64,000 bases of DNA from Amphiscolops sp. MND2022 (Eukaryota), in NCBI GenBank assembly GCA_964187785.1, contig OZ076409.1:31498001-31562000 (forward strand), read 5' to 3'. The notes beneath the pieces were generated by a model. The model saw only the letters and a list, made by a program, of their open reading frames with translations. It did not search any database and was not told where the DNA came from. Shown piece after piece: positions 11,253 to 22,422 of the stretch. Within the stretch, counting starts at the first letter, position 1. Each line of letters begins with the position of its first letter. The position numbers and the translations under genes were made by a program.

Positions 11253-12041
11253 AGGAATTCCATATGTCAGATTAAACTTTTCCATGAAAGAAACTAGCAA
11301 AACGTTACAGCTTGATAACAAAAACTTAATTATTTTCTGTTGACCGAACCTTGGCCGCATGGGACTTTCTCTGGTGTCTTTCGATGAGACGTTGATAGCG
11401 TAGTCGGCAGTGTTGCCATTTGATATTAACTGAAAAAATTCCAGGATGTCACTCATGAGTTATTCACCATTCAATATTGTATGAAAATAACTATGAAGTG
11501 TTAGTCAACTATCTACAGTCAACATTTCACAACAAGTCACACTACTCCAGGAAGTCACAATTCCTAATAGATAAATCATGCGACAATTGTCATAGATCAC
11601 TCAAAAGTAAATAAGGTAACAGAGGGAATGTCAACTTGATGTAGTCAAAAATTGAGCTCACGACAGGGATCAAAATTTCGACTGATGAATTTTCAGAGAA
11701 ACCGTCACGACGAAAAGATAAACTATGGAAATATAAGTTGCGTCACGGCGAAAAGATATACTATGAAAGTATACGTTGAACAGTGATTATTAGTGAACCT
11801 GTCTGAAAGAAAAAAATATAGTCTAAATCTACACTGAAATTACTTCATAACCAGATCCATAAGTTTCAGATCTGCACCTAAATGATAATGAAGCGGTCAA
11901 AGGGACCTTGTCTGTTGATCAACTTGTTCATGATGTTCCTTTTAAAAAGCATGATACTCTCACTGGCAGGCCTCCGCCGAATTATGAAAACTATGGTTTC
12001 CGACGCCAGAAACGTGCTCCGATTTATCAGACTTAACACCA

Positions 12042-13625
12042 TTGCAACGAGATATCTATGACCAAATTTTGCAGTTCCAACGCTTAGAAAAGACGAATCC
12101 GAAAGTTAATCCTGATGACAGGGACGCATTTTTGAAAAAGTTCACATGGGATTCTTGTGTGTTGACCGCTGACCAAAAACAAAAATTAGAAGAATTTCTG
12201 ATTGAATACCATGATGTATTTGCTAAACATCGTTTCGATGTTGGTTATAATACTGAACTTAAGATCAAGTTAACGCCATCAAATCCACTTCCTGTTTATG
12301 TACAAGGTCCGCCGGTGCCAATTCATCTGCGTGATGAAATTTTGATTGAGCTAGCATTACTTCAATATTACAATATAATCACAACACTCTCGCATTCAAA
12401 GTACAGTAGTCCAATATTTGCTCACCGCAAACCATCAGGACAATTACGCCTACTCATAGATCTTCGTCGCGTTAATCATCTTTTGAGGCATGATTATTTG
12501 AACAGCAATTTTCCAATTTCAAATATGACTGATGCTACCAACCATTTCGCGGGCAAACAACTCTTTTGTAAGTTAGATTGTTCACAGGCCTATCATTGCG
12601 TTCAAATGGCTGATGACCTTTCGGTTCAATTGCTAGCATTTAATTTTGGTTCGCGAACATTTGCCTATAATTGCCTAGCACAAGGTCCTAATAAATCCGT
12701 CACGGGGTTTAGTTCTTTCATCAAAAACTATTTGGATAAGTGCTTAGCGGCCAATGTTTGTACCCAATTTATGGACGACATTGCCGCAGGAGTAACATGT
12801 TTTGATGAACTTATCCCTACGTTGACAAAAATTTTTGACTGTCTTAGAGCATCAGGTCTTGAACTTTCTGCTCACAAATGTGAGTTCGGAACTACAAAAA
12901 TCGACTATTTAGGCAATACAATCACGCCTGCAGGGATCACTCCAGAATCCGATAAAATCAAGAAATTTTTGGACAAAATCCGAATGCCTGATACTGTACG
13001 TCAAGTTAAACGTCTCATTGGTTTTGTTCAATTTTTCAGAAATTTTATCCCTGACTTGAATCAAAAACTTTTACCTTTCTATAAACTTCTTCGCAAAGAC
13101 ACTGAATTTATCATTAGTAATGCTCACACGGAAGCGCTCGAAGCTTTGAAAAGGGATTCGATAAATGCGACTAACTTAACACTCCGCCTTCCAAAACCAG
13201 GTTTACAATACGTTTTGCTTTGTGACGCAAGTTATCACGGTACAGGTTTCGTTTTGATGATTGAGGACTAATTAATAGACCAAAAAGGACAACAAAAAAA
13301 ATCATACGCGCCCGTCTCCTTTGGTTCTCGACTCTTCAATGATACGCAATTGAAATTTTCAGTCTAGTTTAAGGAATTTCTTGCCTTATATTTTGCATTG
13401 GACCATTTTGCTCATTTTCTTTGGGGAGCTTCAAAACCTATCCTAGTCCTAACGGATAATCGTAGTTTAACTCAATTTTTTAAATCAAAAAGTATACATC
13501 CGCCGTTATGGAACTGTCTCGACCGTGTTCTGTTCTTTAACATTCTAATTGAGCTCATCCCTGGTAAAGCTAATTCAGCTGCGGACTTTTTGTCCCGCAT
13601 GCAAACTGACCCTAGTCTTTGCTGA
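12042..13625 (+). pseudogene. pol: Gypsy reverse transcriptase + RNase H (premature stops)
   Basis: SKYSSPIF, RLLIDLRRVN, KLDCSQAYH, FMDD, YLG, GFVQFFRNFI; RNase H LCDASYHGTGFVL, TDNRSL, IPGKANSAADFLSR. Confidence 0.95.
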
Positions 13626-13845
13626 TCAATCAAACTGACTGATCGGGTACCTATTCGAGAAATCGAAGTAGAAACTGAAGCAAAAACTCCTAACGTTTCG
13701 CTTTCAAATATTGACGAAATGATTCCTTTTTCAAGTACTTCTCAGCTAACAGTAGACGCAAATTTCATTTCTCAACTCCAAGCACATGGCCTATATGAAC
13801 AATACTTGAGCAAACGCCTCTTTAGCAAATGATCCTAATGAACTA

Positions 13846-19265: not shown

Positions 19266-21623
19266 ATGATTGTCTCTTTCTTTCTTTTAATCCTCACCCC
19301 AGCTTCGGTTCGACCTGTCTGGGATTCCAATTTGCAACCGTCAAACAATCATGACGAATTATTAGAAAAAGGCATCCTATTTCACGAGCGTGGCAAAATC
19401 TTGTTGGCCGAAAAGTTTGTTCCCGTGGAATTTATGATTCCTTTTCCGACTTACGAGTTTGCTTTGAAACGTGAAATTGAACGAACGATCGACCGTCTTG
19501 GCTCAATGTGGGACTTGCCTTCGCTCTTTTGTCCCCTTAATTTTTCTACCAACTTCAATTCCAATTCAACTTCGTTCAACGTTATTGGATTCTCGTACAA
19601 ATAAATCACGAAATCAACGAGGCCGCGAACGATGTTATAATTTTACGAAATGAAACTTCGGCCTTTCTTTCTCCGCCCTCTCCTCAGCGACCATCTCGCC
19701 AGAAACGTGGTGCTAGTAATGGTGCGGTTGCACTTGCCGCTGTAGGACTTTTCGGTGGTGGCGTTGCTTTGGGAAGTTCTGGCTCGTGCGGTCTACAAGG
19801 AAATTTTGGAACTTGCCAGGACCAGTCCAAAACGAATGCCGAGAATATTCGACGCCTCTCCGATTTCCAAGATATCCTTTCTCAATACGTCACCGAATTC
19901 TCGAGTAGTACCGAAAACAAATTTTTTCAATTGAAAATGAACTTGCCGCTATCAACGACATACAAGCCGACATGATTGCCACTCAGAATCAAAATTGGGC
20001 GCTGATCGAACAACAATTTGCAGTTTTTGAAAAAACATTCCTCGTTTTGCGCGATTGTGATCAAATGCTTTTTTCTAACCAGCAATTAAATTTCAACTTC
20101 GACACTTTGTCGTCCTTACTTTCTATGATCCATGCAAGTGTCAAAAGTTTCCGCGCAGCTCTATTTGCCTTTCGCATAAATGGTTTAAACTCTATACCTG
20201 TCCTTTTGCGGGGACACCTTCCGATGTATTTAGTACCGCTCGATTCGCTACTGGTGATATTGGAGAGTGTAGTGAGAGATAGGGCTAATGCCGGCAATCG
20301 CCTTTCGTTGGCCATCCCGATGTCTGATCTCTTATCTTATTACGATTCGCGTCTGCTTGCCGATGCGGTTACTGTCTCTGAAGGTTTATTGTTAACCCTC
20401 AACATTCCTCTCGCGTCACGGCAAGCAGTATTCAGTCTCTTCGAAGCAAAACTTATTCCGATGCCTTTCCCAGATGATTCAGAGTCTGCTTTAATGTGGG
20501 ATATTGAAGTTCCCTTCTTAGCAATCTCGGAAAATCTTATGGAATCTTCGCCACTGTCGGCTAGTCAAGTTGATCGATGCCTCGGCTAATCACGATACCG
20601 AATCTGTTCCGAGACTATTCCGACAGAGATAGGACATTCGTCTTGTCTGGCCACTTTATATTTCGAATCGCCCATGGAAGTTCTTTCAGTATGTGACACT
20701 AAAATCATTAACTTACCGACAATCGAACAAGCTACGAATCTTGGCTTCGGCATTTGGCTTATCACGTCAGCAAGCAACAAGTTCAATTTTCGGGAATCAA
20801 TGGCCTCATCAGCCTCTACAAAACAACATCTTTTCCAGGCTGTCAGATCTGCCTGATTACGTTAGAATGCGGGATGCAAATTATGACACCAAATATCAAA
20901 ATTCGTTCAGATTTATCGAGCTGTACACAGGTACCAGCGATCAAATTGGAAGTCTCTCTTCCGAATCCCCTACAGTCATTGATTATGGAAGTGCCGCCAT
21001 TGGACGATCTCCCTCTTTTCAATAGCCGAACCGAAGCAGGAGTGAAGTTGTTGAAACAAGTTAAAACGGAGCTTGCTAGAGGCCCGAAGCCACGAGAAGT
21101 CAAGCATCTTGTGGAAATTGCGCGACCTTTCGCATCAAATATGAAATTATTAAAGCTGTCCCTTGTTAAAGAATTCAATCAGTATGTACCCTTCAAGGTA
21201 TCGTTCATGCTCACACTGACTGTCTTCGTCTTTTCAACGGCTCTTCACCTGTTATTCATGTACATTTATCACCGCTACAATTTGGCAACTCGTGTTCCCA
21301 AGATCTTCGATGATTTGAAACGAAAACTGCCGCTTCGTCAAATGGTAGATGTCCCTACAGAACACGAAAACAAAATACCGTCACTTCAATCCAAACATGG
21401 TGACCGTTATCATTTTCAGTGTGCATCCTCAAGCAAAACATCTGATGCCGTGGATATATCATCCTTTCATACAAAACCGAATCCGAAAAAGTTCAGTTCC
21501 TTCGGTCCTAATGAAGCAAACCATTTTTCCGGGAATTATCCCAGCAGTTCACCGCTGCAACGCGCTAAAGGCTTTGGCAACTTGGTCACCCAAACTCAAA
21601 TGGAATCATCCACTTCAGCTTGA
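19266..21623 (+). pseudogene. env: Envelope glycoprotein, class-I fusion (F-protein-like), frameshifted
   Basis: Signal peptide MIVSFFLLILTP. Furin site RQKR (19697-19708) followed by fusion-peptide-like GASNGAVALAAVGLFGGGVALG, then a heptad region and Cys-rich segment. TM VSFMLTLTVFVFSTALHLLFMYIY. Split over ORFs 19266, 19769, 19972, 20674 and 20754. Confidence 0.85.
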
Positions 21624-21932
21624 CTTCCCGTTTTTCATGTTTTCTTTCTAATCATAAAACTGGACTTCATTTATAATTTCTGTAAACATTCAATGCAGTA
21701 TTTTTGGGCTTGCTATAAAAACAAAAAAACGGACTATCGATATATATTCCTCTGGGCTTTTGGATACTTGTGCTGGCTTTCTTCCTCCTATTTCATTTTG
21801 GATATTCTCTTCTCACTGGATAATTTCTTTGGATATTCTTTTATCTCAATTGGAATCTTCACTTGAAGTTGTCACTATCTCCATCCGTATGATGGTTCTT
21901 CACAGGACCGGAAGTGTTTCGAAGGGAGGTAG

Positions 21933-22422
21933 TGTACCATACTGAAACAACTCCAGTTGAGAGAGAACGAACTTTCACATATTTGGAGTGATTCTTTCAA
22001 CCTTTCAAATATTTAACTTTTGAATGACGTTCAATGTTTTTTCTTCAAATTGGAATTTGACATTTAAATAACCTTCATACATAATGATTGGAATTACTGA
22101 ATAACAAAATCATAAGAACTATAATCGCAGAAAAAAAACAGCTTGGTTTTGAATACTAAGGAAACTCACCAGGATTGTTGCTCACAGCATCCGATGATCC
22201 GCTCTGCCAAGACTGCTAAACAGCTGAGAAGAAATCACTAAGTCTCTAAGAGACAATACAGGACTAGTCATTATGTATGAAGGTTATTTAAATGTCAAAT
22301 TCCAATTTGAAGAATAAACATTGAATGTCATTTAAAAGTTAAGTATTTGAAAGGTTGAAAGAATCAGTCCAACTATGTGAAAGTTCGTCCTCTCTCAACT
22401 GGAGTTGTTTCAGTATGGTACA
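21933..22422 (+). repeat. Putative 3' LTR (490 bp) with 155-bp terminal inverted arms
   Basis: Begins TGTACCATACTG and ends CAGTATGGTACA. 21933-22087 pairs with 22268-22422 (7 mismatches by eye). Directly preceded by the PPT; no TSD around it. Confidence 0.75.

Follow-up and report, generated by a model that had tools for sequence, protein, structure and literature searches.

Env-carrying Ty3/gypsy elements across animals are, to our knowledge, described as gag-pol-env elements only. Macrodomains and OTU proteases that erase ADP-ribose and ubiquitin-like tags are known from corona-, alpha-, nairo- and arteriviruses, and antisense genes such as HBZ are carried by deltaretroviruses. Ty3/gypsy elements with an F-type env, the errantiviruses, have been reported across metazoans (Chary & Hayashi, eLife 2026, PMC13524379), while extra open reading frames (ORFs) are described in antisense orientation for plant Ty3/gypsy elements (Vicient & Casacuberta 2020, PMC7264820), as macro-domain ORFs for fish epsilon-like endogenous retroviruses (ERVs) (Basta et al. 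2009 as cited in PMC4977317), and also for rotifer elements (PMC5408684). Ginger1 DNA transposases combine a Gypsy-like integrase with a C-terminal OTU or Ulp1 domain, some of them with introns (Bao et al. 2010, PMC2836005), and OTU domains are also found on Helitrons (PMC2836005). Here we describe an element in a 64,000-nt stretch of the genome of Amphiscolops sp. MND2022 (GCA_964187785.1, OZ076409.1:31,498,001-31,562,000, forward strand; the whole stretch is hereafter called the window), which belongs to a family of env-carrying Ty3/gypsy elements with two additions, a TARG1-like macrodomain at the C-terminal end of Pol and a cassette of two predicted antisense genes between pol and env. The reading favored as a whole, with a probability of roughly 0.8, consists of this family plan, a conserved and exchanged antisense cassette, a chance junction at the long terminal repeat (LTR) of the window copy, and a proposed mechanism and function.

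Results

Organization of the element and its copies in the genome

Positions 11918 to 22265 of the window hold one copy, 5'-truncated and mutated, of a multi-copy env-carrying Ty3/gypsy (errantivirus-like) element. The original prediction, made from the window sequence, had placed this element at 11880..22422; the element itself was recovered, but its true start is at 11918 and its 3' LTR ends at 22265. The six features claimed for it (pol, macrodomain, antisense gene, antisense membrane protein, env and inverted repeat) are all present close to where they had been placed. Genes on the plus strand of the window were called from stop-to-stop ORFs and a Pfam scan. The coding features are listed below.

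11918..16459, plus strand: Pol-macro polyprotein gene, 5'-truncated, beginning at about residues 305-330 of the 1819-aa ORF of an intact relative, L015
11988..13271, plus strand: reverse transcriptase (RT) and the start of RNase H (Pfam RVT_1, E 2.6e-19; RT_RNaseH_2, E 4.6e-5)
13810..15174, plus strand: integrase (IN), with H2C2 zinc finger and rve core (Pfam Integrase_H2C2, E 9.7e-15; rve, E 1.8e-12)
15152..16057, plus strand: Pro-rich linker of about 300 aa from the C-terminal end of integrase to the macrodomain, from translation
16058..16441, plus strand: TARG1/OARD1-like macrodomain, C-terminal end of Pol (PDB 4j5r, E 8.4e-23)
16951..18227, minus strand: predicted antisense five-exon gene for a 333-aa HHCC-like and OTU-like protein, from splice reconstruction
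18227-17914, 17844-17591, 17519-17353, 17281-17091 and 17026-16951 (with stop), minus strand: predicted exons of the antisense gene
18559..18870, minus strand: predicted small type-I membrane protein, 104 aa, with a signal-like N-terminus, one transmembrane segment at about aa 68-90 and a basic tail
19266..21623, plus strand: predicted F-type class I fusion env gene, broken into four frame pieces by frameshifts near 19584, 19930 and 20828, and with one in-frame stop

In intact relatives the family plan consists of an LTR (about 335 bp), a primer-binding site starting with TGG, gag, a polyprotein, the antisense cassette, env, a polypurine tract and an LTR. The polyprotein has the order protease (PR)-RT-RNaseH-IN, followed by the linker of about 300 aa and the TARG1-like macrodomain.

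Copies were collected from the 1.07-Gb genome of the same organism, in which the DNA search listed 58 matches, with the best 29 of 1964 candidates scored. Among the matches listed, 17 start exactly at window position 11918, and env and LTR are matched at 95-97% by ten. The 1500-nt flanks upstream of 16 other copies were compared, and 15 of them are alike at 92-99% over essentially their whole length, while L006 shares just a part of the flank, in two pieces that amount to 580 nt. The DNA upstream of the window copy is unlike all 16. Because this shared flank is absent upstream of 11918, the window copy has lost its front part, which comprises the 5' LTR, gag, the protease and the N-terminal 305-330 residues of Pol. 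Relative to intact relatives, Pol carries three in-frame stops (within 11988-13811) and two frameshifts (near 13810 and 15164), and env three frameshifts and one stop. The window copy is dead and not an intact element.

In the copy used as the main comparison for the antisense cassette (locus L031, hereafter the C9 copy), both pol (1244 aa) and env (822 aa) are open, and the middle part is only about 64% identical to the window at the nucleotide level. Upstream of this copy the gag region occurs twice, in a partial tandem duplication with a spacing of about 2.3 kb (L007/L032, G000:C9:6484600-6488600), and of its 5' LTR only the last 146 nt match. TGG, with which the primer-binding site of the family starts, follows the LTR end in the C9 copy.

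Macrodomain at the C-terminal end of Pol

The macrodomain occupies residues 303-430 of a 435-aa ORF (15152-16459) and was aligned to residues 21-143 of the 4j5r chain, one of five PDB entries of human OARD1/TARG1 that were matched. This alignment runs over the whole domain and bears out the TARG1-like assignment made in the original prediction. The stretches HKPTY and GxGxDRL are kept in it, and the conserved Lys and Asp are those which we take to correspond to the catalytic K84 and D125 of TARG1. At least 150 macrodomain homologues are present in the genome (the best 150 of 1016 candidates were scored, and all 150 matched), and many of those listed end open frames of 1650-1925 aa. The intact relative L015 has a single open 1819-aa ORF in the order PR-RT-RNaseH-IN-macro, in which Pfam located RVT_1 at aa 476-641, RNase H at 707-838, H2C2 at 1053-1110 and rve at 1131-1220, the macrodomain is at aa 1687-1814 (4j5r, E 8e-22), and the PR match is weak (E 0.11); the best PDB match of this ORF is Ty3 Gag-Pol (E 1.8e-43). 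Since one open frame includes all of these domains, the macrodomain is the C-terminal part of Pol. The Pro-rich linker in front of it matched no Pfam family.

Two observations count against this picture. The Pfam family Macro (PF01661) stayed below the cut-off on the window macrodomain (E 0.26), and in the lineages L051 and L052, of which L051 also has env, the cassette is present but the C-terminal extension of Pol is without a macrodomain. The macrodomain is an addition in some cassette-bearing elements, not a universal component. L051 is at G000:C1:59574200-59579200, and L052 (G000:C4:64201000-64206000) also shows an ORF for the small membrane protein. In another Ty3/gypsy family, represented by L053 (G000:C1:2915000-2920000), a TARG1-like macrodomain is located upstream of RT within one long ORF; dozens of copies of this family are listed with open frames of about 1853 aa, and the family may be young.

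A conserved antisense cassette between pol and env

Over the interval 16.5-19.2 kb, the comparison of the window with the C9 copy gave a conserved coding signal on the minus strand only, in six conserved coding blocks. The minus-strand ORFs 17520-17846 and 17910-18278 are parts of one gene, which upon splicing of five exons gives 333 aa without stops in the window (introns of 69, 71, 71 and 64 nt) and 334 aa without stops in the C9 copy (introns of 62, 62, 64 and 68 nt, all GT-AG). Intron positions and splice phases are identical in the two cassette types. The donor of intron 1 is TTGAGT in the window, instead of GTGAGT in the copy L001, and with this mutated first donor the antisense gene of the window is therefore also damaged. 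Exon 2 of the window (at 17662) is without 12 nt, in frame, that L001 has, and exon 4 of L001 has a 4-nt insertion that shifts the frame; the window and L001 each carry their own lesions. Upstream on the same strand, the small membrane protein has a Cys-rich ectodomain with an NGT site.

The two cassette types are far apart in sequence. Between the window and the C9 copy the amino acid identity is 34% for the small membrane protein and 42%, 47%, 58%, 59% and 44% for exons 1 to 5 of the antisense gene, the whole coding sequence of which is 48% identical with pS 0.867, pN 0.345 and differences of 0.43/0.30/0.64 at codon positions 1/2/3, while the adjoining IN-macro ORF keeps 92.7% nucleotide identity. 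As judged from these substitution patterns, the cassette appears to be under purifying selection in the antisense frame, with synonymous sites saturated between types. The cassette is far older than its backbone, which argues for exchange by recombination, not for fast evolution.

Linkage of the modules was examined with protein queries against the same genome. The exon-4 query (65 aa) matched all of the best 150 scored among 267 candidates, at 39-100% identity and mostly over exactly the size of the exon, and the membrane-protein query gave 96 matches from 117 candidates. Linkage was counted among the matches listed, 147 of the 150 macrodomain rows being used for pairing with exon 4, and an unpaired match carries no information. 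A listed macrodomain match was found within 3 kb of 78 of the 150 exon-4 matches, and all 78 pairs are convergent with a median spacing of 926 bp; likewise, 76 of the 96 membrane-gene matches have a listed exon-4 match within 4 kb, and in every one of the 76 the membrane gene precedes exon 4 on the same strand, at a median of 1756 bp. Other copies carry a diverged version of the same antisense genes in the same place and of similar length, and the block is found between pol and env even in lineages where exon identity is only 45%. The cassette is kept in position, order, strand and exon structure across many diverged lineages. Since this linkage is seen in independent and diverged copies, the block is a stable part of these elements, and the co-occurrence of pol, macrodomain, antisense genes and env in one lineage, as originally proposed, was observed. 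The test that the original prediction had set for its own refutation, a lack of the 16.5-19.2 kb block in other family members, did not refute it.

The cassette differs strongly between copies with nearly identical pol and env. Among about 21 copies with a macrodomain 76-100% like that of the window, exon 4 falls into at least seven identity classes, with 52-100% identity to the C9 type, and L001 combines the cassette type of the window with an env only 77% alike. These patterns point to a shuffling of cassette types among near-identical backbones by modular recombination.

Two points weigh on the other side. No canonical poly(A) signal was found after the antisense stop codon, and both transcription and splicing of the antisense genes are inferred from sequence conservation. 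Apart from these two points, intron-less copies of the antisense gene were not found, the longer open frames being either in-frame read-throughs of introns or frames with stops.

Assignment of the predicted spliced antisense protein

The N-terminal part of the antisense protein carries an HHCC-like motif split by intron 1, with HLKTPEWHC at aa 67 in exon 1 and CPQCF at aa 110 in exon 2 (spacing H-x6-HC, then 34 residues past that C, then C-x2-CF). The motifs GGGxC[WF]F, GWIRY and FHCEP follow in exons 2-4. In an alignment of 40 rows, FHCEP and GWIRY are present in at least 90%, the G and C columns of the Cys loop in at least 70%, and the Cys column of GxGxC is held by 70-90%.

A multi-copy family of intron-less ORFs of 325-347 aa in the same genome (L038-L041 and L044) has the HHCC-like motif together with a Pfam-positive OTU domain (27.2 bits for L038, against the PF02338 cut-off of 23.3 bits). 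The ORF of L038 is at L038:844-1884 on the plus strand (within G000:C1:86422162-86425509), and the family is convergent with a BEL/Pao-type integrase ORF (rve and DUF5641). With a profile of the antisense family as the hhalign query (Neff 2.7), the L038 family was aligned over 248 columns at a probability of 96.6% (E 5.3e-10), with GGGxCWF placed on GDGNCLF and both zinc-finger halves and the Cys loop aligned. An independent OTU ORF, L043, was aligned over 93 columns at 87.1% (E 4e-6). Two reversed controls gave 0.1% each (E 0.77 and 0.58; 50 and 70 columns).

The assignment as an OTU-like protein, contained in the original prediction, was borne out in part, by these two partners and not by three others: the OTU ORFs L034 (0.4%, E 0.16, 10 columns), L036 (13.5%, E 0.0021, 16 columns) and L042 (3.9%, E 0.011, 41 columns) were not significantly aligned. 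Several further results tell against it. An alignment of four OTU sequences was matched at 13% (E 0.0022, 72 columns), and the His motif FHCEP lies outside the hhalign-aligned columns. The likeness of the HHCC-like motif to an integrase finger is weak: the integrase of the element itself was matched at 9% (E 0.0034, 26 columns, aligned at CxxC), and the Integrase_H2C2 match of L038 has a Pfam E of 0.1. The antisense exons and the read-through ORFs gave no relevant Pfam or PDB sequence match, including no Pfam OTU match at E<=10, and none of the 23 Pfam OTU matches of the six-frame genome-wide scan falls within the mapped copies of the family. Because the likeness is one between profiles and is found without a Pfam match, the protein is named OTU-like, with an HHCC-like finger, and not filed as a member of the OTU family; on these profile comparisons it is likely a ubiquitin-type protease.

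Other searches gave leads at most. In the ESM Atlas the best score for exon 2 was 0.82, and an OTU cluster came at rank 13 with 0.79. A HMMER search with exon 2 gave 25 matches, 24 of which resembled exon-size or read-through pieces (7 inspected); no Pfam family was found in any of the nine scanned, and an FG-GAP/RHS protein (P0119) was dropped as spurious. A WWE domain on exon 4 was set aside, since the match was weak (E 0.011-0.26) and covered only about 17 residues. The AlphaFold2 model of the L038 homologue was unusable (pLDDT 36.7).

Proposed mechanism and function, and alternative readings

The four short introns would survive retrotransposition because they are antisense to the genomic (sense) RNA and would never be spliced from it. 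Being antisense to the genomic RNA, the cassette would therefore have to be transcribed from an antisense promoter inside the element, for which the spacer at 18.9-19.26 kb, next to env, is the most plausible place. The mosaic pattern of cassettes could arise by template switching between co-packaged RNAs. The macrodomain may travel with Pol/IN in the particle and strip ADP-ribose made by host PARPs from proteins or nucleic acids of the element during reverse transcription and integration. The OTU-like protein may remove ubiquitin or a ubiquitin-like tag from proteins of the element or the host, and the small membrane protein may act together with env, as a viroporin or by receptor interference. 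This joint assignment of roles is a tentative proposal, with the odds somewhat against it.

In its widest form, the proposal would describe a large clade of invertebrate env-bearing "complex retroviruses" that clear the incoming or integrating element of ubiquitin-like and ADP-ribose marks set by the host, by means of a finger-fused OTU deubiquitinase, a viroporin-like protein and a Pol-borne TARG1-type ADP-ribosylhydrolase, with a modular, recombining antisense cassette that has introns and its own promoter. This is offered as a conjecture of rather doubtful standing. If true, it would point to PARP- and ubiquitin-based systems that restrict retroelements in invertebrate germlines, and to an arms race that shows itself in the swapping of cassettes.

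The strongest competing reading is that the macrodomain and the OTU-like module serve the replication of the element itself and do not counteract host immunity, for instance by stabilizing Gag or IN against degradation or by managing ADP-ribose and ubiquitin signaling at the DNA break of the integration site. The macrodomain is physically fused to integrase and the OTU-like protein carries an integrase-type finger motif, as such a role would have it. PARP activity at DNA breaks is established. A repair-linked role has also been proposed by the authors of the Ginger1 study (PMC2836005). The exchange of cassette types between near-identical backbones would however be more typical of conflict genes. 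The results described here fit a self-directed role as well as counter-defense, and we regard the self-directed role as less likely than not, yet as the alternative to be taken most seriously.

Conceivably, too, the antisense protein has no deubiquitinase activity of the OTU kind and is instead a diverged or inactive papain-like protein, or one with a different fold, that has a regulatory or structural role, such as binding the pre-integration complex via the HHCC-like finger. The lack of Pfam and PDB sequence matches on exons and read-through ORFs, the insignificant hhalign results for three of the four independent OTU ORFs and the low rank of the OTU lead in the ESM Atlas all agree with it. 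The alignments at 96.6% and 87% that include the Cys loop, compared with 0.1% for the reversed controls, and the retention of FHCEP and of the GxGxC Cys column across the alignment argue against it, and we consider it rather improbable.

It is highly improbable that the 16.5-19.2 kb block came into the window copy by chance, as a nested insertion of an unrelated transposon or a captured host gene: among the matches listed, L001 alone shares the block of the window at 95% nucleotide identity, and OTU domains do occur in the DNA transposons Ginger1 and Helitron (PMC2836005), but the other copies have diverged versions of the same genes in the same place, in the fixed orientation of the 78 convergent and 76 collinear pairs and down to 45% exon identity.

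Env and the LTR junction

In the env gene a Gly/Ala-rich hydrophobic stretch comes after an R-x-K-R site, which fits a class I fusion protein, and 109 homologues of this env were found. The Pfam family Baculo_F was matched by one of 20 scanned env relatives (E 3.6e-7), and the env family profile gave only weak matches to influenza HA2, starting at the HA2 fusion peptide (E 0.077). An AlphaFold2 model (pLDDT 65.5, core 75-90) was compared with the PDB by Foldseek and matched 106 solved chains at E<=0.001, with the top rows all of paramyxovirus and pneumovirus F proteins (best E 5.5e-6, probability 1.00, TM <=0.45). Against a library of viral proteins, the matches of the model, with E-values as low as 8e-21, were to chuvirus glycoproteins, baculovirus F and a protein of an abalone herpesvirus. 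The F-like env of the original prediction agrees with these matches of the model to paramyxovirus, pneumovirus and baculovirus F proteins. By its predicted fold, this env is of the F type as described for metazoan errantiviruses (PMC13524379).

The 3' end of the window copy is made up of two features.

21931..22265, plus strand: 3' LTR of 335 bp, with a purine-rich tract in front of it that ends near 21929
22268..22422, minus strand: inverted copy of LTR bases 3-157, found only beside the window copy

The two arms of the inverted repeat (21933-22087 and 22268-22422) have 155 nt and are 95% complementary, and the second arm begins 2 nt past the LTR end. The 3' LTRs of eight other copies end at the same base and are followed by eight different flanks. 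The second arm is probably a remnant of an older inverted LTR into which the window copy inserted; insertion into another LTR would leave an arm equal to LTR bases 3-157 inverted, as is seen. The other half of the target LTR would have lain at the lost 5' side. The palindromic LTR had been taken as a feature of the element, and a self-complementary LTR acting as a functional hairpin of the family would indeed be expected to have long complementary arms, but a second arm is carried by none of the eight other complete 3' LTR ends and the arm of the window has the extent left by such an insertion, which makes the hairpin extremely unlikely and leaves a local junction.

Several neighboring sequences were noted in the window. 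Shortly upstream of the truncated element, a 927-bp unit is repeated in tandem almost twice over at 9571-11252, its copies being 93-99% alike. Next to the 3' side of the element, 22802-24478 is open over 558 aa and encodes an RVT_1 domain (E 8.6e-20) without integrase; it is probably an adjoining non-LTR retrotransposon. The region 34000-52000 has a low G+C content (0.31-0.35) and a strong positive GC skew (+0.15 to +0.42).

Discussion

With the family described here, env-carrying Ty3/gypsy elements gain enzyme-type accessory functions, predicted from its domains, of a kind known elsewhere from RNA viruses. The antisense placement offers a retroelement a way to keep intron-containing genes, and many of the long ORFs are still open, so that the enzymes are directly expressible. 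If the proposed functions hold, ADP-ribosylation and ubiquitin-like tagging become candidates for the restriction of retroelements in invertebrates, and a record of that conflict could be read in the swapping of cassettes among backbones that are nearly identical. The occurrence of a convergent OTU gene behind pol in a BEL/Pao-like element, and of a macrodomain elsewhere in another gypsy family, suggests repeated recruitment of such modules. In the main texts of the literature searched, with most subscription journals and Repbase reports outside its scope, no description was found of a macrodomain on a Ty3/gypsy Pol, of an OTU-like gene in an LTR retroelement or of a multi-intron antisense gene in an animal retroelement.

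Among described systems, the metazoan errantiviruses resemble this family in their Ty3/gypsy pol, in having pol followed by an F-type env and in occurring as multiple similar copies in an invertebrate genome (PMC13524379). The main text of that report does not contain the words "macro", "OTU", "antisense" or "accessory", whereas here a macrodomain on Pol and a two-gene antisense cassette are present. The plant Ty3/gypsy elements with antisense ORFs, as described in PMC7264820, and HBZ likewise have a minus-strand gene between pol and the 3' LTR, with a proposed accessory or regulatory role. The cassette differs from them by its two genes, one with four conserved introns, by its enzyme-like domains, by its animal host and by its apparent exchange between lineages. 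A macro domain in a retrovirus-like element is shared with the fish ERVs, but there, according to the account in PMC4977317, it is an additional ORF of a vertebrate Retroviridae-type element, and here it is fused to the C-terminal end of a Ty3/gypsy Pol.

With Ginger1 the antisense protein has in common an integrase-type H2C2 motif and an OTU domain, here HHCC-like and OTU-like, in one intron-containing protein of a mobile element (PMC2836005). Compared by description only, the two differ in that no DDE core lies between finger and OTU-like domain in the present protein, and in that its gene is antisense inside an LTR element, while Ginger1 lies between terminal inverted repeats. The macrodomain resembles human TARG1/OARD1 (4j5r, 2l8r) over 128 aligned residues (E 8.4e-23) with the HKPTY and GxGxDRL stretches kept; the human protein is however a free 152-aa cellular enzyme, and the domain described here is the C-terminal part of a retroelement polyprotein with a predicted activity. 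The macrodomains and OTU proteases of RNA viruses are similar in that erasers of ADP-ribose and ubiquitin-like tags, here recognized from sequence, are carried on a virus-like replicon. The present family differs from them in belonging to another class of virus, in the TARG1 type of its macrodomain and in an OTU-like domain that is only remotely similar.

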